This document shows, one piece after another, positions 38,483 through 62,758 of a stretch of DNA of 64,000 nt. The notes beneath the pieces are model-generated. The model saw only the letters and a program-made list of their open reading frames with translations. It made no database searches and was not told the origin of the DNA. This stretch comes from a virus, in IMG/VR virus record IMGVR_UViG_3300050821_002136, positions 44,278 through 108,277 of that record, one strand, 5' to 3'. Both the position numbers and the translations under genes were made by a program. The stretch's first letter is position 1. Every line of letters starts with the position of its first letter.

Positions 38483-41400
38483 TTACACTATGCCAGCGTT
38501 GCCGCCGCCAGTCGGAGAAATAGAAGACCAAGCGTCTTGCTTTCCCGTGAGCAGTATTTTATGCAGTTCGAACCATGAACCCACCGCATTAGTACTGACT
38601 TCAATGAATGCTCGGTTTCCTTTCACATTAATGCTCCGCATGTAGTCGTCTTGAACTGGGTTGTTCAAGTTGATTCCAATGGGCACAGTATAGGGATACC
38701 GCGCATCCAAGGTGTTGGGGTACATCTTTGTGAGCAATGCCCCATTGCCTTCGGCCGTCAATTGCAGCACTGTGTAGCGCTTTTGGTGCATGCCAAAGAT
38801 CGGCATTGTGACAGACTTGGCTGCGTTCACAAATCCGTACGTAGTGTACAGACTGTAGATTGCAACTCCGTCATCGCTTCTTTGCATAGGATCGAGTTGG
38901 TAGATCTTGGAACTATCTATCCCATTGCAAATGAAAAGAGGGACATCATTCAAGTTCTGCCTTGTAACGAAGCCCATATACGGTGTTGGAATCTGCCAAA
39001 TAGACCACTTCCTACGCATGTCGGGACTGGCTAACGTGCCGAACATCGTGGCGTGTACTTGTATTGCGCTCATCAACTCCTCGAAGGACCCTAGAGCCTC
39101 ATAGTTCAACATTAGGATTACGTTGGGAGTAGTAGGCTTTGGGTTGAACGGTGCGTGGGGCAACCATTGTACTGTCTTAGTAGCTTGACCAGTGACTGGG
39201 TCGGTGCCAGTGGGCAATGGAACAGCGCAGAGAATCCTGCGATTTATGATGTCATTTCTCAGAACGATGGTATTCCCAGCGTCCCAGTTTATGGCATTGT
39301 ATAGCTGTTCGATTTCCAAACTAAAGAGCTTAGGCTGGCCTCCGTCCGTCGCCCAGATGCCATTACGGCAAGCCATGATGGCCCACTCCTCACCTGTGTC
39401 ATAGGAAGCGATGCCTATGGCTCCTACACGATTGCTGACCTCATTTATGGACCAGCCTCCAGGTTCAGAGTTTGGATTGTCCTTAGTTATGTACAGACTG
39501 CTTGTTTTAGTCAAGTAGAGACTGTCTCGTAAAATGAAAGCCCCTGTGCATGTCTGTGCGTTTTGAATGGATGTGTCTAGGATTCCTCCGTCACCAGATG
39601 TGTCAATGGACTCTGGCTTGCCTATGTAGGACCCGTAGACCTGTGCTCTAATAAACGGAAACTTTGTGGGAAATACTTCTATTCTGTCTACTAGAACGTC
39701 TGCGCCTATGCCCATGTTTATCACACGGAGACGCAATACCAATGTAGCTGGCAAAGACTTCAGGTTTGCGAACGGAGCTATCAGTAGGGTTCCGCTGAAC
39801 ACTGAACTAATCGTAGTCATACTAGTCAAGGGGACTGAGAATGATCCGTATGTGTTCCCGAAAATGCCGCCGCTCAAGTCCACAAGGTCAATCACCAGTG
39901 TTCCTAATCTAATGCCCGAAAGGCACGCGCACGCTACACGTACAGAGTAAAGCGTATTAGGCCTGATGATTTGGACTTTATATGGGTCTTGAAAAGCGGT
40001 CTGAGTGATTGTTCCCATGACTGGCTGAATGCTGCCGGTCGTGTTGGAAATGTACAACGCTTGTCCCGTTACAGGGCTAGTAAGCAGTGTAATTTCATTG
40101 TTCGTAGCATGGATTCCCCAACCAAGCGGGAGAATTGTGCCAGTAGGGTTCGGTAGGTACCCACCATCAAAGCTAAGGTTGTTAAAGTTGTCTACCTTAT
40201 TCAACATCATGCCATAGAACATGCGGCTTGAGTACGCAACTGACCAAGCGGGACTTCCTAGCTCTATAAGATTGAACAAGTTTCTTCCTTGAATGTCAAT
40301 CTCTGTAGAATTCAAAAGTACTGCGTCGGTAAAGCTAAAAGCTGCTGTAGTGTCTATGTTGTTTCTGATGATGGTAGACGTGTATGTGGTAGTTACCGTT
40401 CCAATCGTAATGACGACGGGATTCTCTATCACATAAAAGTTCGCTCCAGGCACTCCATTTTGTCCTGCCTCAGTAATCGCTATGCCTCGCGCAACTACAT
40501 CAGGTGGGCCTATGGGAATGCTAGAAACGTTAAGCAGGTTTGCGTTCGATGAGACAGTGAACGTGATAGGAGGGGAAGCTGGTGTCCAATTACCGCTCTC
40601 TGTAATGAAGAAAACGATAGCCTGACGAGTGCCTGCTCCGATAGGTACAATGGAGCTGCCTTGGGAGCCTCCAATTATAGCGACGTTCCCACCGCTGCCA
40701 TTTCCGAAAATTACGTTCGTAGTCGTCCCTTGGAATTTTTCCCCAGGATCAAACGTAAACTCCGTTCCAAACTCTGTAGCTTGTCCTTGGGTCTCCACCG
40801 TTTGCCCAGGTAAAATTCCTGGAGGTGCAGCAATGCCCGTAACTGTGAAAAACGAGCCTGAAACTGTAGCAATCACGAACGTGCCATTAAACACTGCATT
40901 ATTCGTGCAGTTAATGATTGTCACAATGTTGCCAACAGTAGGAGGTGTGGTAGTAGTGCCTGCAAAATTCCAGCCGTACGTAGCTGTGTTCGTGGAATAG
41001 TTAAAGCCTGTGCTGGTGATGTTATAAGCTCCACCGTTCAAGGCTTCGACAATCGTCCATGTATTGTTCCACCCTGAAGGTGTCACTCCCGTGATCGTTA
41101 TGGGAGAACCAGCAGTTAAGCCGGGGATAGGTGTGCTAGTTGTCAGTGTGGCTAAAGTTTGTCGGTACTGAGATCCCACAATGCCAACACCAGGATAGTG
41201 CCCAGTAGTGGTAAATGTGAACGTGAAGAATGCTAGGGTCTCTGAGGTACCAGGGTAAAACCCTTGCCCCATACTAGTAACTTGCCAAATTCCGTTGAAA
41301 TTAAATCCGCCTTGCACAGCTCCAGTGATTTCTACAAATACCGCATTGCCTGAGGCCATAGCTGCCGCAAGGTTGGCATCCGTAGGATTGGGGTCTGAGT

Positions 41401-43456
41401 GTACGCTGTAGTACACGGTGACGTTATTTCCAGGAGTTTGGCTTCCCGGTGCAGAGCTTAGCAAAAATCCTAAACCTGCAGGAGTTGGGTGAGTAGACGA
41501 ATACGGAGGAAATTGCGTTATAGATACGATCCCATAGCTGAAGGAAGGAGTAGCTGTTCCTGTTATGGGTGTGCTGACCACGTCTGGGTGTTGGAATGCT
41601 GCTTCGAATTGCGTAGGGGTCAAACCAGAACTCAACACGATAACCGCTTGTCCGTTCAAATACGCTATGCTCGGAATGTTGAGTACATAAACAGCGTCTG
41701 CGGAAGGTTGAGGGCCTGTGTATTGGAAGGTGATCACGTTGCTGGTGATAGCAAAGCTAGTCAGCTGTATGATTCCTCCTACCGAGCCTATTGCAGCTTG
41801 GAAGGCCGGAGGTGCTCCAGGACCTACTTGGGTTACAGGGTAGAAGTTTCCATCTGTGTCCAAAAGCCTGGGGCGATCTGTGCCGATAGTCAAATCAGAG
41901 AACATCAAGAATTCCTTGTTGTTCATTGTTTCACCGTGGGCAAAGGTGTCAGGAAGAAGTCCCGTCAACGCTAAAGACAACACCCCAGGAGTATTGGTTA
42001 CGTCTTCTTTCCACAAGTTTCCGTTTTCATCCAAAGCCAGGGTCTGAAGGAACAGATTATTCTGCTCATAGCTTCCTATGTAGTTGAAGTTTGCCAAGGC
42101 TGGAGTGATATACGTAATCACATCTAGGTCACCAATGAAAGTTGTACCTGTACCTAGAGCTTCTATTTGCACCCCAAACAACGTGCTGTTGACGTTGGCC
42201 GCAGACCACAGACTTCCCCAGAGATCCATAGGACCACCGAGAGAATACACAGTTCCAGGGGTAGTAGTAAGTTGCACTATTTTAGGAGTGCCTACTGGGA
42301 CTCCTGCCTGAAGGAGCTGTAGTGATGCCGAGGTAGTTGTGCTGGAATACGCTAAGAAGCTGACCCCAAAGCCTGAGATTCCCGAAGTCAATGCTAAGGA
42401 AAATGAGAAAGCTTGGTCAAGCAATACTCCGCTTGTGGTAGAAGTAGCGTAGTATACAGTGACCACCAACGAATTGGCTGAAAATGTACCATTGGCACCT
42501 GAGCCAACAGCTCCCGCAGTTACTGTTACTCCAAAATTTGGTCCGTTCACTAATGCGGGAGTTAAGACAGTTCCCCATTGGTACGTGGAACTTCCCTTAA
42601 TGTACGTGGTCATAGTGCTGGTGACTGGAAAGGACAACGTCGTGCTTATAGGAGACCCGCTACTCGTTAGTCCTAAGATCACATTGCCAGTGCCTGAGCC
42701 AGAATACTGGGCTGCTAAGGAAATAGAGATGCCCTTTACTATGACATTCGAAGGAATGTTGAGGTTAATAGCGCTGGTCTGAATATTGTCGGGATGAGGA
42801 GCATTAAAGAACGAACTTGAAAAAACCGTAGCTACTGATGCTCCCGTTGCTGTGATGTTCCCAGGAGTAGTCCAAGGAGTTCCTGTTCCAGAATTAACAG
42901 CAGATCCAGGTATTACTGAGACAACACTAGGTACTCCCGTAGCTACTGAGGCATACCCCGTGCTGCTGAAGATGTTGTTGGGAGAATTCCAAGACGGACC
43001 TGTGGCAAGGCTTCCTATGTTTGGTCCTACAAAGATTCCAGAGAGGGACACGGCATTTCCAAAGATCCCTGAGACGATTGTTATGTCTGAGCCTATGACA
43101 TTGGCCGTGAATGTCGTCGGAGTAACACTCAGTACAAACACTGTTTGTCCGTTCAGGAAGCTGAGGCCGTCTGTAAACCCACTGAGTATAAATTCCTCAT
43201 TAACCGTGGGAGTGATCCCAGTGTAAGTAAACACTGCTAGTCCGTAATGCAAAGAAAAGCCTGTGATGATCAGGGTAGAGGTAAAGGAGTACACACTTGT
43301 TAAACCGGGTCTCGTAAAAACTGCTCCTACGGCATAGTCTACGTCCCAATTCCGTGGACTCGCACCTTCTGGTAAGTCCTTAGGGTCTGCAAACGTAATA
43401 AGCCCACCCATGTTGGATAGGTCTGCGCTGCCCAAAGCTTGTAGATTGTGACCCAA
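38483..43456 (-). CDS. Tail tubular protein B / nozzle, greatly expanded with inserted beta domains
   Basis: N-terminal GGL....DPKDLP..AS...N....G....RPG; C-terminal propeller with G.I.......; 1657 aa. Confidence 0.75.
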   Translation of the reverse strand: MGHNLQALGSADLSNMGGLITFADPKDLPEGASPRNWDVDYAVGAVFTRPGLTSVYSFTSTLIITGFSLHYGLAVFTYTGITPTVNEEFILSGFTDGLSFLNGQTVFVLSVTPTTFTANVIGSDITIVSGIFGNAVSLSGIFVGPNIGSLATGPSWNSPNNIFSSTGYASVATGVPSVVSVIPGSAVNSGTGTPWTTPGNITATGASVATVFSSSFFNAPHPDNIQTSAINLNIPSNVIVKGISISLAAQYSGSGTGNVILGLTSSGSPISTTLSFPVTSTMTTYIKGSSTYQWGTVLTPALVNGPNFGVTVTAGAVGSGANGTFSANSLVVTVYYATSTTSGVLLDQAFSFSLALTSGISGFGVSFLAYSSTTTSASLQLLQAGVPVGTPKIVQLTTTPGTVYSLGGPMDLWGSLWSAANVNSTLFGVQIEALGTGTTFIGDLDVITYITPALANFNYIGSYEQNNLFLQTLALDENGNLWKEDVTNTPGVLSLALTGLLPDTFAHGETMNNKEFLMFSDLTIGTDRPRLLDTDGNFYPVTQVGPGAPPAFQAAIGSVGGIIQLTSFAITSNVITFQYTGPQPSADAVYVLNIPSIAYLNGQAVIVLSSGLTPTQFEAAFQHPDVVSTPITGTATPSFSYGIVSITQFPPYSSTHPTPAGLGFLLSSAPGSQTPGNNVTVYYSVHSDPNPTDANLAAAMASGNAVFVEITGAVQGGFNFNGIWQVTSMGQGFYPGTSETLAFFTFTFTTTGHYPGVGIVGSQYRQTLATLTTSTPIPGLTAGSPITITGVTPSGWNNTWTIVEALNGGAYNITSTGFNYSTNTATYGWNFAGTTTTPPTVGNIVTIINCTNNAVFNGTFVIATVSGSFFTVTGIAAPPGILPGQTVETQGQATEFGTEFTFDPGEKFQGTTTNVIFGNGSGGNVAIIGGSQGSSIVPIGAGTRQAIVFFITESGNWTPASPPITFTVSSNANLLNVSSIPIGPPDVVARGIAITEAGQNGVPGANFYVIENPVVITIGTVTTTYTSTIIRNNIDTTAAFSFTDAVLLNSTEIDIQGRNLFNLIELGSPAWSVAYSSRMFYGMMLNKVDNFNNLSFDGGYLPNPTGTILPLGWGIHATNNEITLLTSPVTGQALYISNTTGSIQPVMGTITQTAFQDPYKVQIIRPNTLYSVRVACACLSGIRLGTLVIDLVDLSGGIFGNTYGSFSVPLTSMTTISSVFSGTLLIAPFANLKSLPATLVLRLRVINMGIGADVLVDRIEVFPTKFPFIRAQVYGSYIGKPESIDTSGDGGILDTSIQNAQTCTGAFILRDSLYLTKTSSLYITKDNPNSEPGGWSINEVSNRVGAIGIASYDTGEEWAIMACRNGIWATDGGQPKLFSLEIEQLYNAINWDAGNTIVLRNDIINRRILCAVPLPTGTDPVTGQATKTVQWLPHAPFNPKPTTPNVILMLNYEALGSFEELMSAIQVHATMFGTLASPDMRRKWSIWQIPTPYMGFVTRQNLNDVPLFICNGIDSSKIYQLDPMQRSDDGVAIYSLYTTYGFVNAAKSVTMPIFGMHQKRYTVLQLTAEGNGALLTKMYPNTLDARYPYTVPIGINLNNPVQDDYMRSINVKGNRAFIEVSTNAVGSWFELHKILLTGKQDAWSSISPTGGGNAGIV

Positions 43457-43484: not shown

Positions 43485-43865
43485 TTACCCGTGTGAATCT
43501 ACGCTGCCCGAGCTGACTACTATTGATGTGCCTGAGAAATCCGTGAGCACCGTTAGTTGTCCTGTGATGCCCCACGGGCCGTTAACAATTCCAGTAACGA
43601 CGCCATCAATCACGGCTTCGTCCACTGCTTGGTAGGCTTTGCCTGCGTCTGTAGTACGGCCGTAGTACGGTGGGATAGGTTGATGGTCCCTGGTACGAAG
43701 GTCTCCAGACTGCACAGTGACAACGTCTCCCAAAGGTGTAGTGAAGGTTACTGTTTCCTTCACGCTAGGAGATGTACCGGAGATTGATGTGCACGATCCG
43801 TGCACAGTAACTTGGTCATACAACTGTACTAGACCGCCGTTCATATTTACTGCTGCGTTGCTCAT
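43485..43865 (-). CDS. Small beta (SH3-like) virion-module protein
   Basis: Internal duplication; resembles 48174-48440 and 58172-58432. Confidence 0.65.
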   Translation of the reverse strand: MSNAAVNMNGGLVQLYDQVTVHGSCTSISGTSPSVKETVTFTTPLGDVVTVQSGDLRTRDHQPIPPYYGRTTDAGKAYQAVDEAVIDGVVTGIVNGPWGITGQLTVLTDFSGTSIVVSSGSVDSHG

Positions 43866-43887: not shown

Positions 43888-45864
43888 TTATTTCTCGTAG
43901 CCACCAAAATTAGCGACCCACTGCGTAGACGTAACAGCATCAGGGGTGCATACCACTCTGATTACGGTCCCTGCTGCGATTGGAATAGGCTCGGGGAACG
44001 TGATCGTGTCGTGCTCAACCTGCGGTCCCACGTAGTTCATGGTTATGAGCTTGGTTCCAGCAGGTGACTCAAGGCTTACGAAGCCAATATTTATTGGGTT
44101 AGTTGCAGTGCCTCCTGTTGGTGCGGCCGTCAGCCGAGGCGTGATGTTCAGGTACTCAACGTAAAACGTCTTCGCTGCGGTTACCGTGTAGGTCAATACT
44201 ACCTGATCCGCAGTGACGGCAGTCGAAGTCAGAGTGCTTGTCTTCATGACGTTCGTCTTGCCTGTGGATTGACCCAGGGAGACTGATCCTATGGTCGAGG
44301 AAGACGCTGCGGCTGCTGGGTCATTGATTACGTGCCCGATGACGTTGGTACCTGCAGGCAGAGCATTTGTGATTGCTGTGACCGCAGTTAATGTTCCGCT
44401 GTCCACTACTGTGTGGAGATTCGTGCCTGTTGGTTGTACGACTGTGACGTTGCCTGTGATCGTCGTTGAAGCAAGCGACACAACCCATGGTGACGTTCCT
44501 TGATTGACAGTGCCTATAACCTTCGTAGTCTCAGCTGACAATGTAGCATTAGTGACTGAGGTAGCATCGGTGATGACATGGCCAATGACTGCGGCCGAGG
44601 CGTCGTTTATGACATGTTGAGGAGCAGTGAAGCTGATTGCTCCGCTAATGGGCTGGGTAACTCCTGATCCGTCCACTCTCAATGCACCCGCGAGGGTAAG
44701 TGAAAAAGGAGAAGTCTGAGCAGTCGTGTATGCAGGAGCGGCCGTAGTGACCGCACCCATTACCAGCCCTCCCTTTTCACCAGACGTGGTAGAACCTTGT
44801 GCAACCTGTAACGAGGATACAGTGGCATCCAAAGCTAGGCCGTTTGTGGTTCCTATGTTCGCTGTGACTGTGCCTGAGACAACCCAAGGTGAAGTGGACT
44901 GAGTGACAGCCACTGTTCCCGTAATGGTCGTTGAAGACAATGAAACAACCCAAGGGGAAGTTCCCTGATTAGCAGTGACAGTGCCACTGACAGGCTGAAC
45001 GGCCTGGAAAAAAGTACCAGTGACAGCTACCGAACCAGTGACAACAGTTGTTGAGCCGGAATCGGTTATAACATGTCCAATTACGTTGCTTCCTGCGTTA
45101 AGGCCGACGTTCCATGTGCCACTCTGGGCTGCGGAGACTGCTCCTACTATGACCCAAGGAGAAGTTGATTGGGTGACTGCCACAGTGCCTGTGATAGTTG
45201 TAGATGCTAGCGTGACAGGTACAGTATTGGTTATGAATGCGTTGACACCGATGACTGTAACTGCACCTGGGGAAGTTCCGTAATTCGACGGAGACCCGAG
45301 GGTCACCCCAGCCCATTCCGTGATGTCATTAGACGCAACTACCGATCCCACATTGACACGCAATGCGCCTGTCAAGTCTGTAGACAGGAAAACCTGATTA
45401 CCTTCGATGAGAGTTGGGGCTACTGCTGATGCGACAGCAGGAAGCACACCTATGTTGTTTCCAAGCGGTGCTGCACTGTTTGTGAACAGACTTCCCGTAA
45501 CAGGAACGGTTCCGCTAGCTTCAGGGAATACGATACGAACAGGTTGCGCTAATTGCAGAGGAGAAGTAGAGACCGCATCTCCGCTGTCATATACCAAGAC
45601 TAGGTCAAACCTCTGTGGTATTCCTGGTTCTGGTGGGTTGTCAAATGTTATGGTGACATTTCCATTAGCATCAACTGTTGCCGTAATGATAGCACCTAGG
45701 GTGTTAGCTATAAAAGCCGACGAAGGAATGACGCCTAGAGGCAAAAATGGAATAGAACCGCTGTCTCCTATTTGGTACACGCTGGAAAGGGAAAGAACAA
45801 AGACGGTAGAAGATCCATCACCCTGCAAGTTGATAACAATAGGAACTAATTGTTGTAGAGCCAT
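43888..45864 (-). CDS. Thr/Val/Ser-rich repeat fibre protein
   Basis: Repeats STTITG.V.V.Q, Q(G/S)TSPWV, VIGHVI.D. Confidence 0.75.
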   Translation of the reverse strand: MALQQLVPIVINLQGDGSSTVFVLSLSSVYQIGDSGSIPFLPLGVIPSSAFIANTLGAIITATVDANGNVTITFDNPPEPGIPQRFDLVLVYDSGDAVSTSPLQLAQPVRIVFPEASGTVPVTGSLFTNSAAPLGNNIGVLPAVASAVAPTLIEGNQVFLSTDLTGALRVNVGSVVASNDITEWAGVTLGSPSNYGTSPGAVTVIGVNAFITNTVPVTLASTTITGTVAVTQSTSPWVIVGAVSAAQSGTWNVGLNAGSNVIGHVITDSGSTTVVTGSVAVTGTFFQAVQPVSGTVTANQGTSPWVVSLSSTTITGTVAVTQSTSPWVVSGTVTANIGTTNGLALDATVSSLQVAQGSTTSGEKGGLVMGAVTTAAPAYTTAQTSPFSLTLAGALRVDGSGVTQPISGAISFTAPQHVINDASAAVIGHVITDATSVTNATLSAETTKVIGTVNQGTSPWVVSLASTTITGNVTVVQPTGTNLHTVVDSGTLTAVTAITNALPAGTNVIGHVINDPAAAASSSTIGSVSLGQSTGKTNVMKTSTLTSTAVTADQVVLTYTVTAAKTFYVEYLNITPRLTAAPTGGTATNPINIGFVSLESPAGTKLITMNYVGPQVEHDTITFPEPIPIAAGTVIRVVCTPDAVTSTQWVANFGGYEK

Positions 45865-45865
45865 T

Positions 45866-48106
45866 TTATCTGACCTCCGACCAAGAGAGAACACCGAGAG
45901 ATGGGGCCGTACCACCTACACCAGTGACACACAAAGTCCACGTATCTTCGGCCGCGTTACCAGCAAAGTTCAATGTGAACGCTTTTTCCGGTGCAATATT
46001 AATACCTCCTGTACCAGATTTAGAGGAACCTGCCCCGCCGCCAGCGTATCCCGAGGCTATGACTATGCCTCCTGTGCACCCCGTAGCTGCTATATCAAAG
46101 TTTACTCCAGAGTTGGCATCCACTGAATTGAACGAGGGTGATCCTGTAAGGGTGCCGTTATAAACAAGCTCCCAATACACAGGATTAGCCCCTGTGACGA
46201 AAACTTCTGTGGTCTCCAACTGGATAAAGGTGCGATTAGTGATGGAATTGAAAGTGACCTTAGGTTGAAGAGAAACCAGAGGCGTGCGCGTCCCCGAAGC
46301 AGCCGTTATAGAAGTACCCTTGTTTCCTGTAGTAAATTTGTACGGAAAGGGAAATTCCACGCTACCTTCTGACATGATAGACATGCAGATTTGCTTCATT
46401 GTTGTAGTGGTAGCAGCGATGCCTGTGTTGGTAATTTCCGCACGACATGGTAGATTGGCAGTGTTCGTGTAGGGAGAAGTAGAATTGTTGGAGTTCACTA
46501 TTTCGTGCACAACAACAAGAGAGTCATCCACGAACAGAGACCAACGTACTCTTCCTACTCCGAGCCACTGCATATCCATGGCGAAAATCTGGGTCTTTGA
46601 CCAGTCGATGGTGATGCCGGAAGGACCCGTGCCATTCATGGGGTCTTTATTCCAGTTTGCTTGCAATATGGAAGTTGTGACGGGACTGCCAGAGGCTGAA
46701 GAGCGTTGATTTACGCTCACCCCAAGCGTACCATCCATCTCGAAGTAGACACCATCGTTAGCATCAAAGTAGCCAATACGACTGCGGACATTCGTCTTCT
46801 GCGCTCCCAAAAACCCTGTCATGATGATGAGTGCCGATTTGCCAGGACAATATCTGAAGTAGGACTTTGTCTGGTTGATTGCCGACGCACCAGAGGCTGT
46901 TCCTCCCGTAGAAAGAGTAATCGAGGATTCATTAGCCGTTTTAGTGACAGTACCAGTACCAACTAAAGACGTATTGAACAGCAACGGTTGGGTGTCGTAT
47001 TGAAACTGAGCTGCAAATGCCGTGAACGGTTGAGAGGTACGGGCGCGATTAAATGCATCGCTCGCTTCTCCACCGAAACCTACCTGCAGATTTCCAAATG
47101 CATCGGTTGCTATGTCCGTATAGAGGGACGGATTGATGAAACTCTTTCCCGTAAGCACAGCTCGGGTAATGCCAGCGGCATCCGTAGTTGCAACCACGGT
47201 GTCCAAAGACTTCGTTGTCTGAACAGCGGGGAGAGAAGACAGGAGCGTCTGCAAACGGAAAATCCCTTGGTTCCCGGTTCCGTTCGTGTACACAAGGCGG
47301 AAGAATCGGGCATGGACACCAGCCACGACCACCACGGGCAGGCTGGCTAGAAGAATAGCCCTGATAACATAGTCCCAACTTGTGCCGTCAGTGCTGAACT
47401 GAAGTTGCAATCCGTTAGGAGCGCTGCCCTGATCAGAGAATGCCTCAACCGAAATCTTAGTAACGGCAGTGGCAGTCAGGTCTACAGCTGTTCCCGTAAA
47501 AACTGCGTTTGCAGACAAAAGGGATGTCGTAGAATTTGCACTATTAACCACGTCAGCTTGTCCTATGACTGTGGTAGTTCCTCCGACAAGTAGATGGCCA
47601 GTGTTATCTACCGCGATATCATACTGATTGCCGTCCAGACCTTTACCAGATACGAGTACAGGATTAAGACCAGTTGCAGTGTGCCCCTCAGGAAACAGTC
47701 CTTGTACCAAGGGGTCCCCAGGGACATATTCGTTCAACACGGAGTCGTAAATAAGCAGTTCCCCGTTGTGGCCGGGAGGTGCAGCTGCAACAGGTATGCC
47801 TTGTATAGACGTGGCGTTAGAAGACCCACCAGCTGCCACAGTAATATCTACAATTCCTCCAGGCTCAGCAGTTATGGCTATGGAACCGTCGGTAGATACG
47901 AGGCCTGTGTTTGGAGAAAAACTTTGACCGCTTGCTGAGGATGGTATAGGATCAAAGGGCCTACGAAGAGGTTCCTCTTGTTGGTTATTAAGAAACCAGT
48001 AGACATCAGAATACGACAGGCCCAAACGGTTAGCTATATCAATTGGTCCAGAGCCTACCTTGAATGCTGCAAGGATTTCGGCTTGTTGCGTTGGAGTTAA
48101 GGCCAT
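45866..48106 (-). CDS. Virion protein with N-terminal HTH-like segment and C-terminal lectin-like beta domain
   Basis: DAFNRARTSQP; YFRYCPGK; DMQWLGVGRVR; ANLPCRAEI. Confidence 0.7.
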   Translation of the reverse strand: MALTPTQQAEILAAFKVGSGPIDIANRLGLSYSDVYWFLNNQQEEPLRRPFDPIPSSASGQSFSPNTGLVSTDGSIAITAEPGGIVDITVAAGGSSNATSIQGIPVAAAPPGHNGELLIYDSVLNEYVPGDPLVQGLFPEGHTATGLNPVLVSGKGLDGNQYDIAVDNTGHLLVGGTTTVIGQADVVNSANSTTSLLSANAVFTGTAVDLTATAVTKISVEAFSDQGSAPNGLQLQFSTDGTSWDYVIRAILLASLPVVVVAGVHARFFRLVYTNGTGNQGIFRLQTLLSSLPAVQTTKSLDTVVATTDAAGITRAVLTGKSFINPSLYTDIATDAFGNLQVGFGGEASDAFNRARTSQPFTAFAAQFQYDTQPLLFNTSLVGTGTVTKTANESSITLSTGGTASGASAINQTKSYFRYCPGKSALIIMTGFLGAQKTNVRSRIGYFDANDGVYFEMDGTLGVSVNQRSSASGSPVTTSILQANWNKDPMNGTGPSGITIDWSKTQIFAMDMQWLGVGRVRWSLFVDDSLVVVHEIVNSNNSTSPYTNTANLPCRAEITNTGIAATTTTMKQICMSIMSEGSVEFPFPYKFTTGNKGTSITAASGTRTPLVSLQPKVTFNSITNRTFIQLETTEVFVTGANPVYWELVYNGTLTGSPSFNSVDANSGVNFDIAATGCTGGIVIASGYAGGGAGSSKSGTGGINIAPEKAFTLNFAGNAAEDTWTLCVTGVGGTAPSLGVLSWSEVR

Positions 48107-48173: not shown

Positions 48174-48440
48174 TTAGCCTTGCTCTGTACTGCCTGCGGC
48201 CCTGCACTGCACAGGGCTTACTTGGAAGATCGGACCCGGGGAAACCTCCCCAGCATTGCCGTTAACTTCCACTTGGCAGGTTACGAGATCACCTGACCCA
48301 CCAAAGTATGTAGACGCAGTGTTATACCCCGGAGGTGCTGGGGCAATAGCAATGACTTTACATTTCACATTAACAAATGTACCTACGGTAAAGTCCTTGC
48401 TGAAGATGTCTTTCTCAATTGTATTAACTGCTACTGACAT
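48174..48440 (-). CDS. Small beta protein (paralog of 58172-58432)
   Basis: VGTFVNVKCKVIAI vs VGNMVTVRCKIKAI. Confidence 0.65.
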   Translation of the reverse strand: MSVAVNTIEKDIFSKDFTVGTFVNVKCKVIAIAPAPPGYNTASTYFGGSGDLVTCQVEVNGNAGEVSPGPIFQVSPVQCRAAGSTEQG

Positions 48441-48449
48441 GGGTTCTCC

Positions 48450-49499
48450 TTAGCCTAGCACAGTCGTTCTATTCCAAGTTGCCTCGAACAGCACAAGGTC
48501 AGAAAGTACCTGTACAGGCATGATCTGACTAGCTGTCAGCTCCACTCCTGCTGGAGTGAAGATCTGCAGCGCGTCATTAACTGGACTATAGTGGTACTGG
48601 TACCCACCGACAAGTAGAGGAACAACAACGTCTTCTCCGAAGACCTCACAACGCAAGAAGCCGTTGAAATCTACCGTACGCTGGTCTGCAAACAACATCA
48701 GTCCCATAGGAATACCTCCTACAGTGTAACCACCGGGGGAGAAGGTAACGATTCCCCAAGCTTTGATAGTTTTCCCCGTGATATCCGGGAAACACAATTC
48801 AGACAGGGTAATCGTAGAGGCTGTCGAGGATGTTGTGGCAGCTGCTGCGGGTGAAGTGGCAGTGTTGCCAGTTGTTCCCGAGAAAGTGACCGCTCCATTC
48901 AAAGCGAGCAAGCGTCCTGTAACGTTCGCATTGTCATTTACCGTGATAGAGGTATTAGCGATAGTGTCGCCCTTCACTACAGCAGTGGTACCATACGTAG
49001 ACGAAGAGCCAACCAGCCAAATGACGTTTCTCGCCAGTGCTCCACCTGTAAGAAGAACAGTAGATCCGTTGTTAAGGGTCAATGTGCTTCCAATTTGGAA
49101 GATAAACTGAGCATTAGGATTGCCCTGAGCGTTCAAGGTTACCGTTCCTCCCACTGACAAGTCCAAAGAAGTAGCAGCTTTGTAAACTCCGGGAGTAAAT
49201 GTCTGTCCAGCAAGGTTTCCTACGATGGGAACACCACCGGGGAGAGCTTGGTAGAAGTTATAAGCAGCAGTGGCGTCAGTCTGTGCTTGCTGTGATGCAC
49301 TGTCAGGTCCGTGGATTGTAAACGGCGCTGCCACTGTGGATGGCGGAAAGTTGGTAACAGCGGACACGGCTGTTGGGTAAATACCAACGTTTCCACCGAC
49401 AACTGATGTTCCAGTTCCGGCTTGTCCTGTTACTGCGGTTGCGGCTAAGACTTCAAAATTTGCCGCTGTTGCTAGTTCTTGATCAATGGGTATTGCCAT
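48450..49499 (-). CDS. DUF3494 ice-binding (IBP-1 fold) domain fused to a putative virion-decoration domain
   Basis: FEVLAATAVT, GNVGIYP, QAQTDATAAYN, LAGQTFTPGVY, LNAQGNPNAQFIFQIGSTL, NVIWLVGSS, GRLLALNGAVT; no signal peptide. Confidence 0.9.
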   Translation of the reverse strand: MAIPIDQELATAANFEVLAATAVTGQAGTGTSVVGGNVGIYPTAVSAVTNFPPSTVAAPFTIHGPDSASQQAQTDATAAYNFYQALPGGVPIVGNLAGQTFTPGVYKAATSLDLSVGGTVTLNAQGNPNAQFIFQIGSTLTLNNGSTVLLTGGALARNVIWLVGSSSTYGTTAVVKGDTIANTSITVNDNANVTGRLLALNGAVTFSGTTGNTATSPAAAATTSSTASTITLSELCFPDITGKTIKAWGIVTFSPGGYTVGGIPMGLMLFADQRTVDFNGFLRCEVFGEDVVVPLLVGGYQYHYSPVNDALQIFTPAGVELTASQIMPVQVLSDLVLFEATWNRTTVLG

Positions 49500-49543: not shown

Positions 49544-49831
49544 CTACAATGCCGACACTAAGGTGCCGTCAAACTTTTTAAACTTCCTACGAGTGTTCGC
49601 CTTAAAGCCCATGCTGAGCCTTTCTCGTTCGGCAGCAGTCGTTACTCGTATCTGCCCTGCTTGTCCAACTCTGCGTTTCTTGAACTCTGCTGCATTTATA
49701 TTGCTCAGAGTTTCTCGGTATATGTTGCGAAATGACAACACCTGATAATTGCTTCGCAAGTAGTGCCATTGAGCAAACACAAGTTTTTGTTGGCGTTTGT
49801 TTAGTAGTTTTTTCTCCTCTTCCTGAGTCAT
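49544..49831 (-). CDS. Basic hypothetical protein
   Basis: Start overlaps the upstream stop; AAGGAAGG RBS. Confidence 0.6.
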   Translation of the reverse strand: MTQEEEKKLLNKRQQKLVFAQWHYLRSNYQVLSFRNIYRETLSNINAAEFKKRRVGQAGQIRVTTAAERERLSMGFKANTRRKFKKFDGTLVSAL

Positions 49832-50553
49832 TACAAACCTTCCTTGAATACTTTGTGAAATTCTCTCAGAATCACGTCTGTACCCGTGGCGTGGAAGCCT
49901 GACCAATTAAGATAGATGCACGCTGCAAAGTAGTTTTCTACAGGTCTCCTTACGGGTGGTGAGGGCCTGATCGGTGCCCTTAAGGGACGCCTTGGAGGAG
50001 GTGGTTTTTCTCCCAGATGCAGAAAGTACCTAGGATCACTAGTCAAAAATATGTTTTGATAGTGAAGCACACTAGATACCCATGCCTCATCGTTACCGTG
50101 CTCATGACTGTGCAGGGCTCCTGCTCGTCCTGGTAAAGGCGCGTTTATGATCAACTCCATAGCACGCCTGCTGAGTACGTAAAAGAATCCCCAAGGTGTT
50201 TTTATTTCGCCAACTTTACAGCCGGGGTCTTGCCAGCCCGAAAAGTCTGCTCGATGGAATCCTGCGTACCACTGACTGGGCTTGCAAATGACATCGTCGT
50301 CTACTTTTGCGGCATAGTCATAGCCGTTTTCATACGCCCACCTCATTACTGCTTGAACCTTCTCGGGCAACTCTAGATAAGCGTCTCCGCAATCCAAGAA
50401 CACTTCATCTGGTAAGGGGTCACGGGTGGCACCTCTTCCTCGGAAGAACCTTAAGTCTACCTCAGCAGGAACCAAAGGTGCCCATGTGCTACGTATGGCG
50501 TCTGAAAACTCTTCCCGGCTGTGGCAATTGATAACTGCTAATAGCACTTTCAC
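49831..50553 (-). CDS. GT-A glycosyltransferase, GT31/Fringe-galactosyltransferase-like
   Basis: IRSTW, DAYLELPEKV, KVDDD, GFFYVLS, NDEAWV. Confidence 0.85.
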   Translation of the reverse strand: MKVLLAVINCHSREEFSDAIRSTWAPLVPAEVDLRFFRGRGATRDPLPDEVFLDCGDAYLELPEKVQAVMRWAYENGYDYAAKVDDDVICKPSQWYAGFHRADFSGWQDPGCKVGEIKTPWGFFYVLSRRAMELIINAPLPGRAGALHSHEHGNDEAWVSSVLHYQNIFLTSDPRYFLHLGEKPPPPRRPLRAPIRPSPPVRRPVENYFAACIYLNWSGFHATGTDVILREFHKVFKEGL

Positions 50554-51613
50554 GTCCTGGTCTCCTGAGGGCTCTGCGTTCTACGGGTAGATTCTTGGCC
50601 ATTTCCTCGTTGTATTTTTTGTACTCCTCCAAGAGGTTTGCATCCTCCTTTAAGATTGTACGGTATTTAAATTCAAACAAAGACTTAATGTCCCAATCAC
50701 GATCATATCCATGCACGATTGAGAACACTTTGCCCTTAGGTTTGTCTACACACTCTATTCCTTGTAGAGGGTGGGATAGAGACTCTATCCTTAGACGACG
50801 GTTCTTCCCCCAAATAGGGTTGAACACAATCATGGAGTTGGTTATCTCTGGCACAGTACCTGCATGCAGTGTGCATGTGTTTATGTCCAACACAGGATGA
50901 GTGTCTCTCATGTAAGGCCAACACGGTACACGCCAGGGGCTCCAACAAGGGTGCAAACAAGCTGCAAAGCCTTCAGACCACCTAGGAATGCGCAATACAT
51001 CTTTTAGCATACTGTGCATCACATAGTTAATCCAAATTTGACAGGGAGGGTGTCCCCCTGTGTACGTTTTACAACCGAGGTGGACTTGGTGAAAAACCTC
51101 AGTCATAGACTCTGCTTCTCCTGCCCAGGTACCTCCATTGATTACTTCACAGTCCTTTATTTCTTGATACTTCTTTGCTCCCAAAATGCTAATAGCCCAC
51201 AATTGGTTAGTTTCTTCTTGCTCTATGGTAACGCACTCGGTTGATCCTATGAGCTTAGCATTACCTATACTATTCTCCATCCAATCGCTGGGGTTACTTT
51301 GTAGAATCAAGTCCTTAACGTCAAGCCAAAATATGTACCTGAATTCTTTGTAGTGATCCCTTAGGTATTCCCAACACACCCTCATGCGAGCGTGAAAAAA
51401 AGGCTCTTTAGGAGTAGGCAAATCTATTAGTTCAAAACCGTGTAAAAGAAGTGCAGACCTAGTTGTTGGATGAATACCCCACACTAGCATAACTTTCCTG
51501 CCGGTAAATCCAGCACGCTTTATGCTCTCTAGGTAAGATTCTACGCCTCCCGGTCGGCTGCGTTCCCACTGACTTCCTAAAACACCTAAAACCAAATCAT
51601 GCGTCTTGTCCAC
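50489..51613 (-). CDS. GT-A glycosyltransferase (DxxD, NGG, HGYDR)
   Basis: FFHARM, WLDVKDLILQSNP, VINGGTWAG, IVHGYDR. Confidence 0.8.
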   Translation of the reverse strand: MDKTHDLVLGVLGSQWERSRPGGVESYLESIKRAGFTGRKVMLVWGIHPTTRSALLLHGFELIDLPTPKEPFFHARMRVCWEYLRDHYKEFRYIFWLDVKDLILQSNPSDWMENSIGNAKLIGSTECVTIEQEETNQLWAISILGAKKYQEIKDCEVINGGTWAGEAESMTEVFHQVHLGCKTYTGGHPPCQIWINYVMHSMLKDVLRIPRWSEGFAACLHPCWSPWRVPCWPYMRDTHPVLDINTCTLHAGTVPEITNSMIVFNPIWGKNRRLRIESLSHPLQGIECVDKPKGKVFSIVHGYDRDWDIKSLFEFKYRTILKEDANLLEEYKKYNEEMAKNLPVERRALRRPGRESAISSYQLPQPGRVFRRHT

Positions 51614-52478
51614 TGAGTCTTCTTTCTGGCAATAAAGAGTCATACAGCTTCCAGCCCTCGTACTGCGGTGTAAAGCTCAACTCTTTCAACTTTGTCACAT
51701 CCATGTAAAACGAAGCTACAGGCACCTTTTTCTGAAATTCAGTTGGCTCCTTGTAAGTGATGTTCCCTGAGGAGTTCATACGATATTTGGCATGCTCTAA
51801 AATCTCTTTGTAGTACCAAGTCTTTCCACAACCGATGTTGTAGATCTCATTGACTGCTCCTTTGCACATCACGGTCTCTACGGCTCGCACGCAATCCTCA
51901 ACATGCATGAAATCTCGGTAAAACCGACCGTCTCCGAACAACTCTACGTCTTTGCCCTCGGCCAACAAGTTGATCGAATGCTGTAGGACGTTCTTCTTGG
52001 GAGAAACCTTGGTGTCCCCAGGCCCTACGATGTTAGCAAATCTAAGAACTCTATAGTTAAGCCCGAAGGTCTCACAGTAAGAAATAAGGAGCTGTTCCGC
52101 GCAGCGTTTGGTGATGATGTAGAATCCCTTAGGATCACATGGGGCGTCTTCGGAAACCGGGAGGTCCTTTTGGTTCCCATAAACTGACCACGAACTGATG
52201 AGGTTGAACACGCCCTTCTTCCCAGTTCTTTCTTGATACCTTTTCCAGTTCTCCAAAACTTTTACAAGCAGGCTCAAGTTTGTGTCAATGTCAAGGTGAG
52301 GGTTGTCGAATACGCTGTAGTTGTGAACAGTGCTTATTAAATGAAGCACGTCTGGGCTATAGACTTCGTAGTCCAGGCGCTCGTTGATGCTTGAGATGTT
52401 TCCTATGGCATGATGATAGTACGCAAGCACATACGCGCTGCCCACAAAACCGTGCCCTCCCAAAATAGTTAAGCTCAC
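51597..52478 (-). CDS. NAD-dependent nucleotide-sugar epimerase/dehydratase (extended SDR)
   Basis: GGHGFVG, SSWSVYG, YIITK (YxxxK), RDFMHVED. Confidence 0.93.
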   Translation of the reverse strand: MSLTILGGHGFVGSAYVLAYYHHAIGNISSINERLDYEVYSPDVLHLISTVHNYSVFDNPHLDIDTNLSLLVKVLENWKRYQERTGKKGVFNLISSWSVYGNQKDLPVSEDAPCDPKGFYIITKRCAEQLLISYCETFGLNYRVLRFANIVGPGDTKVSPKKNVLQHSINLLAEGKDVELFGDGRFYRDFMHVEDCVRAVETVMCKGAVNEIYNIGCGKTWYYKEILEHAKYRMNSSGNITYKEPTEFQKKVPVASFYMDVTKLKELSFTPQYEGWKLYDSLLPERRLSGQDA

Positions 52479-53149
52479 CTGAGTCTCCTAAACGTTCTCT
52501 TCTCTGCAGAGTTTTGGGCCTTGTAGGCTTTGTACTTTCTGTTCTTCTGGTCTGCCCATGTCTCAACCATCATTTCCGGCCGATATCCTTTGAAGTACCA
52601 TGCTCGGACGCTGGACAAATGAAAGGTGATAGTGTGGTCGTCCATCACATCCCCAGGACAGAATTTGAATCTTGGGTCTGCGTGGAGTTCTATGCCCTTC
52701 CCTAGAAGTATACGAGCAATATGTACGTCTTCCTCAAACCCCGGGGCTCCCCCAGCATCTACTACGTACTGCATGGCTTTTCTAGAGAGGATATAGCCAG
52801 CTCCTCCTGAGGCGAAGAAGGAATTGGCTCCTCCGACCCAATCGTAGGCTTCGAAACCACTCGCTAGGAGTAGCCTAGGGCGTACCAGGGTGTCCAGGTC
52901 GCACTTGAAGACGAATTCGTAGCCCTGTTCCAATGCCCATGCGTAGAGGGCAACGGTTTTATTCGTGAGGCTATCAAATCCGTCTTCAACCTTGAGAAAT
53001 ACTTCATCGTGCGCTAAGTTGACCTCAGGGTTACCAAGGAAAAACCTGAGGTCAACCTCAGGGGGAATGTCCTTCCCCCACGTAGACTGGATCACCTCCT
53101 CGTACTGCTTAAGAGAATGGCAACTAGGTACGGCTATTAAGACTTTCAT
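52475..53149 (-). CDS. GT31/Fringe-like glycosyltransferase (paralog of 49831-50553)
   Basis: IQSTW, KCDLDT, SGGAGYILS, EEDVHI. Confidence 0.85.
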   Translation of the reverse strand: MKVLIAVPSCHSLKQYEEVIQSTWGKDIPPEVDLRFFLGNPEVNLAHDEVFLKVEDGFDSLTNKTVALYAWALEQGYEFVFKCDLDTLVRPRLLLASGFEAYDWVGGANSFFASGGAGYILSRKAMQYVVDAGGAPGFEEDVHIARILLGKGIELHADPRFKFCPGDVMDDHTITFHLSSVRAWYFKGYRPEMMVETWADQKNRKYKAYKAQNSAEKRTFRRLR

Positions 53150-53343: not shown

Positions 53344-54738
53344 TTAAGGGGTAGCGTTTTCAAGGTAATTGTATTCAAATGTCCCTTTTACTAATGACGC
53401 TACGCCGTCTGATATGGATACGGCATGAGATGCTCCACGCGATGCATTAGCAGGAAGATCCGAATCCGTAGTTCCTCCACCTCCTCCTGCGTTATTATTC
53501 AACCACCAAACCAAATCACAATTAGCAACAGGAAGATGGGTGTTAGAAGAGCAAACGGAGACACCATTGATGAACAAAGTTGCAACGCCGTTATCGAGAA
53601 TGATCTCAAACTGATATCTTTGTGCGGTAACGATAGGTACCCCGGAATCTACCGACGTAACTACGCCTGCCAGAGAAGTGAACAAAAACCAATTCCCTGG
53701 GGATATATTGGCAACTTTGTGGACACCAATGCAGCATGAATCAAGTGTACGAGGGTCTACTGTACCACTCCCAAGGGAGTTAGAGAAACCTACAATGTAG
53801 TCACCAGCAGCCGTGTTAGCATTTTGGTCATAGTTAACAGTACCTTTACAAACGGTCCTTCTACCTGGAAAAGCAAAAGTCCTGTTTCCATAATAAATTC
53901 TACCCGTAGAAGTTGACCCGATAGTCAATGCGTCTAATATGGCTAAGTGGTGAGTAGGATCAGACGAGAATGCTTGCCATAAAACGAAACTTGCTTTGTC
54001 AGGTTGCGGAATAGTGTCAGAAGCAATTGTCACATTACCAGAACCATCTTGTACAATGGTTACGTTGTCTCCATTTGCCAAATTAAGCAATGTTTGGCTT
54101 CCATTGAGAATTCCGTTGGTCTTAAGAGTAATGCCTGGACTTGAGTTTATTGTTACTCCACCAACTCCGTCATCTACAATTGTTATGGCCGTTCCGTTTT
54201 TCAAGTTCAGAAGTGCTTGGCTTCCATTGGCAATTCCATTGGTCTTCAAAACCAAACTGGGAGGAGGAGCAGGAGCTGTTGCACTTATGGTGACATTTCC
54301 AAAGTTATCTGGAGTCAGTATAACGTTAGGTCCTTGTTGTAAATTGAACAACATCTGGTTGAACAAGGGAGATCCGTTAACTTCGAGAAGCAAGGTAGTA
54401 CCTAAGGTAGACCCTACGTTTCCTATGGATTGATCAATGTAGAACTGTTGAAGTTTTCCGCCAAAGAAGATGGCCACGGTGTACAACCCAGGAAGGACAT
54501 AAAAATCGTAGTGACCGAAGCCGTCTGTAATGACTGGCTGAGCAAGTGTAGTAAATCCCGCATCCGAGTACACCTGGACCTGTGGGTTAGGTGTGAATGG
54601 GACAGGGAGTGTCCTAGGAGGCGTCATCGGAGGAGTCACATTTGCAGGTTGATTTAGCACGTATACTTGTGCTCCAGATACAGCTTGGCCGCTCACAAGT
54701 TTCACCCAGCCATCTGACCTATAAAAATTCAATGCCAT
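53344..54738 (-). CDS. Tail fibre/spike with carboxypeptidase-regulatory-like anchor, internal repeats and a C-terminal lectin-like domain
   Basis: RSDGWVK..GQA..GAQ.YV..TDGFGHYDFY; three LxxNG....Q.L.NL..G..V repeats. Confidence 0.8.
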   Translation of the reverse strand: MALNFYRSDGWVKLVSGQAVSGAQVYVLNQPANVTPPMTPPRTLPVPFTPNPQVQVYSDAGFTTLAQPVITDGFGHYDFYVLPGLYTVAIFFGGKLQQFYIDQSIGNVGSTLGTTLLLEVNGSPLFNQMLFNLQQGPNVILTPDNFGNVTISATAPAPPPSLVLKTNGIANGSQALLNLKNGTAITIVDDGVGGVTINSSPGITLKTNGILNGSQTLLNLANGDNVTIVQDGSGNVTIASDTIPQPDKASFVLWQAFSSDPTHHLAILDALTIGSTSTGRIYYGNRTFAFPGRRTVCKGTVNYDQNANTAAGDYIVGFSNSLGSGTVDPRTLDSCCIGVHKVANISPGNWFLFTSLAGVVTSVDSGVPIVTAQRYQFEIILDNGVATLFINGVSVCSSNTHLPVANCDLVWWLNNNAGGGGGTTDSDLPANASRGASHAVSISDGVASLVKGTFEYNYLENATP

Positions 54739-54748
54739 GACTTCTCCT

Positions 54749-55189
54749 TTACCAAGTAGCTATGCCTACGCGCTTCCATGTATTAGGTGCTATGCAGATG
54801 TAGATGAAATTGGAATCCCAAGTCACGGTTCCAGCATCGCCTGTGTCGCTTGAAGTCGATGGGGCATCACTAGGCACGATCAGAGCCTCACCAGTAGCTC
54901 CCATAGGGATTTGGTCTGCATAGAGCTGCTGAAGTTTTCCTTGGTTAACAACTACGATGGTATAGGGAATTCCCGAGGCTGCATAGAAGTCATAGTGCCC
55001 AAAGCCGTCTGTGCTTATAGGTTGTGTTATTGGGAACATTCCTGCTGGATCAGAGAATACCGTAGCTAATGGGATAGGCGGGAGAAAAGTCGCATCGGCA
55101 GGTTGTAGACACACGTAAATCTGAGCCCCAGCTATGGCTTGGCCTAGGACGCTTTTGACCCATCCATCACTTCTAAAAAATGTAGCCAT
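54749..55189 (-). CDS. Short virion protein sharing the anchor domain of 53344-54738
   Basis: Same N-terminal domain; C-terminal WDSNFIYICIAPNTWKR fibre motif. Confidence 0.75.
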   Translation of the reverse strand: MATFFRSDGWVKSVLGQAIAGAQIYVCLQPADATFLPPIPLATVFSDPAGMFPITQPISTDGFGHYDFYAASGIPYTIVVVNQGKLQQLYADQIPMGATGEALIVPSDAPSTSSDTGDAGTVTWDSNFIYICIAPNTWKRVGIATW

Positions 55190-61810: not shown

Positions 61811-62087
61811 TGGTGCCTTCTACGTTGCGCTTCTCACGGTCCAGCTTGCGCTTTACCAGCCAAAGCAACGCTTCGTCCAGCTTGGTAATGACCATGGCAT
61901 TCTCACGGCAAGGAAATTGCTTGTTGAGTCCTTCGATCTTCTCCTTGGCCCATTCAATGACATCGTCAATCTGCCCACCGTTCACTCCGAATTCTTTAAT
62001 GGGGCCGCTCTGCGTTGTAAAGGTTACTGTGGAGGTCTCTCCGTGTACCTGAGGCCATCCTTCTTCTGCGATGTAAAAGTGATTCAT
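61800..62087 (-). CDS. tad1: Tad1-family cyclic-nucleotide sponge (anti-Thoeris/anti-CBASS)
   Basis: QSGPIKE.GVNG...DVI.....I......FPCRENAMVITKLDEALLWL.KR..DR..RNVEGT matches the recalled Tad1 signature. Confidence 0.8.
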   Translation of the reverse strand: MNHFYIAEEGWPQVHGETSTVTFTTQSGPIKEFGVNGGQIDDVIEWAKEKIEGLNKQFPCRENAMVITKLDEALLWLVKRKLDREKRNVEGTNAI

Positions 62088-62674
62088 TCTGAGTTCTCCT
62101 GAGTCTTAAGTGTGTACTTCTTTTCGTAACTTTTGAGGTACCTGAGTGCTCTCTTGGTCCAGCTGCCTTCCACCGAGGTGTTCCTTAGGTAGATCTCGGC
62201 ATAGTCGTTAGGGAAGTCCCTAAGGAGGGCTTCGAGAGGGGCTAGCCTACGATTACAAGGACCACACAGTACGCCACGATTGCATTTTCCACAGGTTCTT
62301 GGTTTTCCGTCGCAGCATGCGTGGTCGTGATCTATGTGCATCCTTCGGCCTGCATCTCCGTCTGTGCTTTCACAGATAGCACAATGCCCACCTTGCTCTT
62401 CGAGCTTTGCTGAGTACTGCTCGGGAGTCCAGTGGTACTTTCCAGTGCTAGCTGAGCGTATGACTTTCTCTCTAAACTCTGGATTCTCATCGTACGATTT
62501 CTTGAAGTTCTCTTGTTGCTTAACGGCAATCTTTGGGTTGCTGTGATAAAGCTTCTTTGCCCTGTCAGCGTTGTACTTCTTAAACGCCTCGGGGTTTTCT
62601 TTCTGTTGCTTCTTCCTCCAAGCTTTTGCTCGGATATTGCTTTCTTGCTTTTGCTGTTCTGTTAACGTCCTCAT
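62084..62674 (-). CDS. Endonuclease VII-type (His-Me finger) free-standing homing endonuclease
   Basis: QGGHCAIC...IDHDHACC....TCGKCNRGVLCGPCN; basic N-terminal helices; GAGGAG RBS at ATG 62674. Confidence 0.88.
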   Translation of the reverse strand: MRTLTEQQKQESNIRAKAWRKKQQKENPEAFKKYNADRAKKLYHSNPKIAVKQQENFKKSYDENPEFREKVIRSASTGKYHWTPEQYSAKLEEQGGHCAICESTDGDAGRRMHIDHDHACCDGKPRTCGKCNRGVLCGPCNRRLAPLEALLRDFPNDYAEIYLRNTSVEGSWTKRALRYLKSYEKKYTLKTQENSE

Positions 62675-62729
62675 TTTATCTCCTCGAAAGACAGAGTAGG
62701 GAAATGTTCGAGGCATTTCCCCACTCCTA

Positions 62730-62758
62730 AATGTACCACAGCCGTCGCCGTGACACAA
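62730..62758 (-). promoter_or_regulatory. Sigma70-type promoter with extended -10 for the EndoVII gene, followed by a 13-bp hairpin before the RBS
   Basis: TTGTGT-N17-TACATT with TGTGG; hairpin GAGTGGGGAAATG/CATTTCCCTACTC. Confidence 0.65.

Follow-up and report, generated by a model that had tools for sequence, protein, structure and literature searches.

The DUF3494 domain is the commonest microbial ice-binding fold. The closest described proteins to the one studied here, EfcIBP (PDB 6EIO) and AnpIBP (7BWX and 7BWY), are secreted cellular single-domain proteins with measured ice activity. The domain occurs in substrate-binding and adhesion proteins as well as in ice-binding ones, across environments that include non-icy ones (PMC12337378). 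In viruses, three PF11999 genes from Arctic viral operational taxonomic units (vOTUs) were listed, without structural context, as genes that might serve to cryoprotect the host (Rahlff et al. 2024, PMC11515562). Here, we analysed a stretch of 64,000 nucleotides (the window), positions 44,278 to 108,277 of the IMG/VR record IMGVR_UViG_3300050821_002136, which is a 108,277-bp, 98%-complete sequence of an uncultured phage. A minus-strand open reading frame (ORF) with an ATG start, at 48450-49499 of the window, encodes a protein of 349 amino acids (aa) that carries a DUF3494 domain at its N-terminus. It resembles the Arctic genes in being phage-borne and known from metagenomes; in contrast to those genes, its domain is seen fused to a phage-only module, in what can fairly be described from sequence as a fibre region. 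An initial annotation, made from the letters and their translations, had proposed an ice-binding domain displayed on the virion by a head-decoration-like module, and had stated that no characterised virion-displayed ice-binding protein was known. We found none in the literature either, but viral PF11999 genes of the auxiliary kind have been reported, as cited above. The parts of the gene are as follows.

48450..49499, minus strand: whole gene (DUF3494 domain, linker and predicted trimer module; 349 aa plus stop), defined by ORF translation and by 54 full-length homologues with 52-73% identity
48870..49475, minus strand: DUF3494 (PF11999) beta-solenoid with a long helix, residues 9-210, from Pfam, phmmer against 6EIO and Foldseek
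48813..48869, minus strand: low-complexity G/T/S/A/P linker, given as residues 211-229, from the translation, a dip in model confidence and the lowest conservation
48453..48812, minus strand: C-terminal beta-sandwich module of ~120 aa, residues 230-349, from stand-alone relatives, its own model and a predicted homotrimer

The identity of the N-terminal domain is genuine and far beyond chance. The PF11999 Ice_binding profile matched residues 17-210 with an E-value of 6.1e-46 (157.1 bits, where the cut-off is 28.7), covering profile positions 1-206 of 208. All motifs quoted in the initial annotation were present in the translation: F15.VLA..AVT, G36.VG..P, Q70AQ.D...AY, L96AG.T.TPGVY, L122.A.GNPNA.FIFQI, N158V.W.VGSS and G195RLLA..GAVT. 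An AlphaFold2 model of the full protein, built on the alignment of 54 homologues, had a predicted local distance difference test score (pLDDT) of 87.6. In this model, the domain (pLDDT >90) adopts the triangular discontinuous beta-solenoid fold, with a helix at residues 67-84 and stacked short strands. A Foldseek search of the PDB gave 31 matches with E <= 0.001, and the top 30 rows were all DUF3494 ice-binding or antifreeze proteins. The best match was EfcIBP (E 2.4e-17, 43% identity, root-mean-square deviation (rmsd) 1.6 Å), whose chain was also matched by phmmer with an E-value of 2e-35. Superposition on 6EIO and on 7BWX/7BWY gave target-normalised TM-scores of 0.87-0.90 and rmsd values of 1.6-1.8 Å; identity to AnpIBP is 34-35%. 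The target is thus of the same Pfam family and fold as the two characterised proteins. A six-frame search of the genome found no DUF3494 copy other than the target gene (159.3 bits).

Unlike EfcIBP and AnpIBP, the target is encoded by a phage, lacks a signal peptide and is tethered to a predicted trimer module. The absence of a signal peptide, already noted in the initial annotation, was borne out: the domain begins at residue 9 (the equivalent position in EfcIBP is residue 30), and the N-terminus MA..ID..L is kept across the 54 homologues. The close cellular relatives that we inspected have signal or lipoprotein leaders at the N-terminus. The closest cellular DUF3494 domains in species genomes are 35-49% identical and spread over many phyla. 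Without a signal peptide, the phage protein cannot get to the cell surface in the manner of these homologues.

The division into a linker and a separate C-terminal domain also held. The linker comprises about residues 208-229 (22 residues), GTTGNTATSPAAAATTSSTAST, and is composed purely of G, T, N, A, S and P. Its pLDDT falls to 76-80, it is P-rich in homologues, and it is the least conserved region: the mean frequency of the top residue across the homologues is 0.57, compared with 0.75 in the N-domain and 0.77 in the C-domain. As a side observation, the Ser/Thr-rich linker could be a substrate for glycosylation, given the adjoining glycosyltransferase cassette. The C-domain contains the motifs G249.VTF....Y..GG and Y300.Y.Y......L.IF....E. 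When modelled alone it folds with a pLDDT of 89.4, as a beta-sandwich according to DSSP. The two-domain architecture was found in ~60 clusters of the protein collection (340-360 aa, 49-76% identical), several of them located on 80-105 kb contigs, and the full fusion is present on 6 IMG/VR contigs.

The C-domain is a phage-only family. An exhaustive phmmer search of 1.84 billion representatives with residues 222-349 yielded 31 related proteins. Most of them are stand-alone proteins (20 in number; 116-137 aa), each beginning where the domain itself does. The nearest ESM Atlas clusters are hypothetical proteins of 127-129 aa, 89-95% viral, and a search of 185,579 prokaryote species genomes did not detect the domain. 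It has no Pfam match, neither the target protein nor any of the 23 C-domain family members searched has a PHROG match, and no PDB sequence was matched by profile. The longer carriers of the module are all DUF3494 fusions, except P0153 (246 aa) and its fragment P0125 (211 aa). In these two, the module stands behind a different N-domain of ~100 aa and a P/E-rich linker, which makes a third architecture. P0149, a PAS histidine kinase, was discarded as a spurious match. In the related IMG/VR contigs L086 (an 18-kb fragment) and L089 (109 kb), a stand-alone C-domain gene occupies the locus of the fusion gene, in the order glycosyltransferase and epimerase genes, stand-alone C-domain gene, giant gene of ~1,685 aa. 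The C-domain thus behaves as the constant part of the protein, to which DUF3494 would have been added in one sub-lineage.

Three copies of the C-domain are predicted to form a homotrimer. Co-folding gave an interface score (ipSAE) of 0.94 in 3/3 runs, against 0.00 for the best of 3 controls, with a contact agreement of at least 92% between runs and a pLDDT of 93-94. In calibration, the mark of 0.94 was met by 20/30 proteins whose solved structures are pairs of one chain and by 1/23 whose solved structures are single chains; this calibration was made with two copies, not three, and the alignment supplied was our own. The predicted interface covers ~31% of the module and contains 9/17 invariant C-domain residues (P238, D239, W248, G262, L282, E289, P306, Q312 and E320), a modest enrichment. 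Structure searches gave no confident relative of the C-domain; Foldseek against the PDB returned nothing with E <= 0.001. In BFVD, the sole match was an uncharacterised haloarchaeal virus protein (E 7.6e-4). We also compared the fold by VIA-align with 48,161 representative chains and with Foldseek's best 1,000, where Z 8 is the level for a meaningful match. The first rank, the C-terminal domain of the tail fibre gp53 of phage AP22 (4MTM), is weak and below that level (Z 5.9, rmsd 3.4 Å, 86 aligned), and so is that of the Det7 tailspike (6F7K; Z 5.1, rmsd 3.7 Å, 100 aligned). Weak values of Z 3.6-4.2 were obtained for pyocin fibre feet and for the heads of adenovirus fibres; among them, the R2 pyocin fibre (6CL6) aligned over 80 residues at 3.2 Å with Z 4.1, below the level of kinship. 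The AP22, Det7 and R2 domains are beta-sandwiches of similar size to the C-domain and are trimeric; unlike them, the C-domain shows no sequence similarity to any of these tips. It also differs from fibre and tailspike tips in that no N-terminal anchor or shaft precedes the module: the protein begins with DUF3494, and a free form of ~120 aa exists.

Other phages carry DUF3494 within their structural proteins. A scan of IMG/VR revealed at least 124 viral contigs that encode a relative of the target's domain. The carrying ORFs were reconstructed for 79 loci, and only 3 of these start with an obvious signal peptide. One, L071:9803-12127 (IMGVR_UViG_3300028654_000012; also seen in L078), is a tail sheath protein of 775 aa with PF04984 and PF17482, whose residues 76-255 make up a complete DUF3494 domain; a second DUF3494 protein, L065, is encoded on the same 117-kb contig. 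Many DUF3494-carrying ORFs are 1,200-2,600 aa long, and L053:5192-12349 (IMGVR_UViG_3300042090_002301), the one among these checked for virion families, is a Baseplate_J protein of 2,386 aa with DUF3494 at residues 1612-1795. The design of an N-terminal DUF3494, a P/A-rich linker and a tail of ~120 aa recurs in several small proteins with unrelated tails; the C-terminal domains of four such phage proteins, L008, L020, L022 and L028, did not match the C-domain profile. In a FastTree of 158 domains, the DUF3494 domains of the fusion family form one clade. The sister branches that join it one after another (SH-like support 95-98) all consist of phage DUF3494 domains with other architectures, and the cellular ones come in only later. 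No cultured phage with the domain was found: neither the 12 kb around the gene (megablast) nor the protein (tblastn) matched any of 50,697 GenBank phage records, and a second DUF3494 query (L030) had no match there either, which may account for the scant literature.

The Ig-like domains of T4 Hoc and lambda gpV are non-essential, added through linkers, gained and lost between relatives, and thought to be weak surface adhesins. The target domain would likewise be a display domain added through a linker, but it is a beta-solenoid and not an Ig fold, and its scaffold is a small predicted trimer. We favour, with moderate confidence, the interpretation that the protein is a homotrimeric, probably virion-borne accessory adhesin, in which an old phage-specific trimer module has taken up a DUF3494 cassette belonging to a pool that phage structural proteins share. 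The ancestral state would have been a small, free-standing, phage-specific beta-sandwich encoded just upstream of the gene for a giant protein of ~1,650 aa and assembling, as predicted, into a tight homotrimer. One sub-lineage would then have joined a DUF3494 beta-solenoid to the N-terminus of this module through a flexible linker of ~22 residues; the tree points to a cassette pool circulating among phage structural proteins as the source. Each trimer with its linked domains would therefore show three flat faces lined with Thr, Ser, Ala and Gly on flexible tethers. Judging from gene order only, the trimer module would most likely dock on the particle, close to the fibre apparatus and the giant protein. 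The DUF3494 domains might then serve as low-affinity, multivalent accessory adhesins for an ordered surface, such as host exopolysaccharide, a cell-surface glycan or ice.

Of the components of this interpretation, domain identity, fold, family structure and synteny are observed, the trimer is predicted, and the attachment to virions and the adhesin role are inferred. Several points weigh against it. The trimer reflects a model's confidence and no measurement. The C-domain has no confident fold relative among the structures compared, its best Z of 5.9 being below the meaningful level. Usual fibres anchor by the N-terminus and bind by the C-terminus, which is the opposite of the proposed arrangement. 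The genome contains no match to a sheath family, the phage has no cultured relative, and its large terminase (TerL) is ~25% identical to those of the nearest cultured phages. The tree is a FastTree of domains picked by similarity to the query, and for this reason it is only suggestive. Finally, an intact flat face is a general feature of DUF3494 domains and gives no ligand identity.

The repeated occurrence of DUF3494 in phage proteins suggests a general surface-adhesion cassette, which would be the beta-solenoid equivalent of Ig-like display domains, and the C-domain is a new compact candidate for a trimerisation module. With its small size (349 aa), its lack of a signal peptide and its probable solubility, the protein is a handy test object for ice, polysaccharide or cell binding.

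The alternative that survives best is genuine ice binding on the particle, where three working faces would let virions stick to ice or curb recrystallisation during freeze-thaw in soil; we consider it unlikely. The target's closest solved relatives, EfcIBP and AnpIBP, are active ice-binding proteins, and PF11999 genes occur on the Arctic viral contigs. The ice-binding site of AnpIBP has been listed residue by residue (PMC7277481), and we carried it over to the target through the phmmer sequence alignment, not through coordinates. At the outward positions equivalent to the ice-binding face of AnpIBP (the B-face), 21/24 residues are A, G, S or T, so that these positions are small and hydroxyl-rich as in AnpIBP. 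Column 4 of the face is a ladder of T141, T168, T186 and T205. Across the 54 homologues, the A/G/S/T fraction is 0.84 at face positions against 0.44 elsewhere, and conservation is 0.84 against 0.74. The face, whose degeneracy had been raised as a possibility, is therefore intact rather than degenerate. Against ice as the ligand, the T-x-T/D motif of EfcIBP reads T-x-N in the target; the family consensus has S-L-G or T-L-L there. Active ice-binding proteins share no motif, AnpIBP itself lacks any repeat motif, and sequence does not predict activity (PMC7277481). The occurrence of DUF3494 in substrate-binding and adhesion proteins of non-icy environments also speaks against it, and the sole verified habitat of a fusion-bearing relative is a large soil metagenome (IMG dataset 3300050821). 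Ice binding by the target domain is possible, though not indicated by these results. Less likely still is the full evolutionary version, in which a small trimer bound to the virion would have become, in a soil phage lineage, an ice adhesin or recrystallisation inhibitor with three heads, protecting virions or positioning them in freeze-thaw. If it were true, a general viral adaptation to ice would account for the DUF3494 inserts that many uncultured phages have in sheath, baseplate and fibre proteins. If ice binding were shown, this would be the first ice-binding protein on any virus particle.

The preferred placement of the adhesin near the fibre apparatus draws on the gene neighbourhood. The target lies within a long minus-strand (late) block whose start, at the opposite end of the contig, is marked by the large terminase and a portal-sized gene. 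The neighbouring features are listed from upstream to downstream of the target.

53344..55189, minus strand: fibre-like pair of 146 aa and 464 aa sharing an N-terminal domain of ~105 aa (blastp 50% identity over 112 aa)
49831..53149, minus strand: cassette of four genes for two Galactosyl_T-like proteins, an NAD epimerase and a 384-aa protein (Pfam; syntenic in the related contigs L003, L006 and L086)
49544-49906, minus strand: basic ORF of 95-120 aa between the last glycosyltransferase and the target, with no detectable homologue in syntenic relatives
48174..48440, minus strand: downstream ORF of 88 aa, which adjoins the target homologue in L004-L006 (tblastn 37-60% identity)
45866..48106, minus strand: 746-aa protein with a virion-structural C-terminal half (PHROG 1645, 'virion structural protein', E 7e-97)
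38483..43456, minus strand: giant T/G/S-rich protein of 1,657 aa (46-56% identity in L003-L006 and L086; same order in L089)

The N-terminus shared by the fibre-like pair heads ORFs of other lengths in relatives, for example of 1,223 aa and 443 aa in L003, and from sequence it resembles an anchor shared by interchangeable fibres. The C-terminal half of the 746-aa protein was also matched by tblastn to structural proteins of cyanomyophages and of phage HMO-2011. Because the fibre-like pair, the PHROG 1645 protein and the T/G/S-rich giant protein all lie nearby, the description of the gene as sitting among fibre and decoration genes appears fair as far as fibres are concerned. In L089, a longer run of ORFs sized like cassette genes lies upstream. 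The ORF at 49544-49906 may not be a real gene. The 88-aa ORF matched no family in Pfam or PHROG. Only in this phage do three inserted genes separate the 88-aa ORF from the giant gene, all on the minus strand, at 45866-48106, 43888-45915 and 43485-43865 (746, 675 and 126 aa); in relatives such as L004, the giant gene comes directly after the 88-aa homologue. The 88-aa and 126-aa ORFs show no similarity to one another or to the C-domain. The 746-, 675-, 1,657- and 464-aa neighbours gave no match in PDB sequence searches, and Pfam and PHROG searches returned nothing informative for the capsid-, portal- and tail-sized ORFs.

The gene for the giant protein follows the C-domain gene in every relative examined, and its product is a candidate docking partner of the C-domain. 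We rejected the giant protein as a tape measure, a reading in which the C-domain would be the tail-tube protein, because its composition is T/G/S-rich and beta-like. No similarity was seen between it and the DUF3494-bearing giant proteins that other contigs encode, and an Atlas lead to crAss_MUZ_C had a score of only 0.83. A search of the genome for crAss muzzle families gave no match, but the same search was silent in control genomes too.

Head decoration, the role favoured by the initial annotation, would place the trimer at capsid three-fold positions, like gpD, Dec or the crassvirus head fibres, with DUF3494 held above the head. The small size, the predicted trimer and the free-standing form in relatives would suit it. 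The resemblance of the C-domain to head-decoration modules was not upheld: no decoration protein appeared in either VIA-align list, where all values are below Z 6, and the best weak matches are the ends of tail fibres and tailspikes. Furthermore, the target gene travels with the giant ~1,650-aa gene, which it adjoins, and with the glycosylation cassette in all relatives, and not with the terminase and portal-sized genes, and no family search confirmed a capsid gene. We regard head decoration as improbable, below both versions of the ice-binding proposal. Overall, the interpretation given in the initial annotation was partly supported.

Two further alternatives rank lowest, and equally so. A C-domain trimer that caps or chaperones the neighbouring giant trimeric protein while it folds, possibly leaving later, with DUF3494 as a secondary addition, would fit the strict gene pairing, the predicted trimer and the weak likeness to fibre-tip domains, but fibre chaperones are usually encoded after the fibre and not before it, and a transient chaperone gives no reason for a 200-aa surface domain kept under purifying selection across 50-76% identity. 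A soluble late auxiliary protein, intracellular or released at lysis and protecting host or progeny from cold, agrees with the published cryoprotective reading of viral PF11999 genes (PMC11515562), but the cell surface is out of its reach, its phage-only trimer module also exists without DUF3494, its gene sits amid fibre-like genes, and other phages have the domain inside sheath and baseplate proteins.

Some other genes of the window deserve mention. At 28492-34044 (minus strand), the late block encodes an apparently multi-enzyme, 'polyvalent'-like protein of 1,850 aa with DUF3293, DUF7178 and a C-terminal GNAT acetyltransferase. Genes resembling endonuclease VII and homing endonucleases lie inside the structural block, at 62084-62758 of the window (minus strand) and at L081:1211-1741 (minus strand). 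The ORF at 20543-22150 (minus strand) encodes a 535-aa homologue of the T5 A1-type 'DNA transfer protein' (PHROG 1745, E 2e-172), and its best cultured matches are mostly from Rhodobacter and Dinoroseobacter phages, at 41-52% identity.

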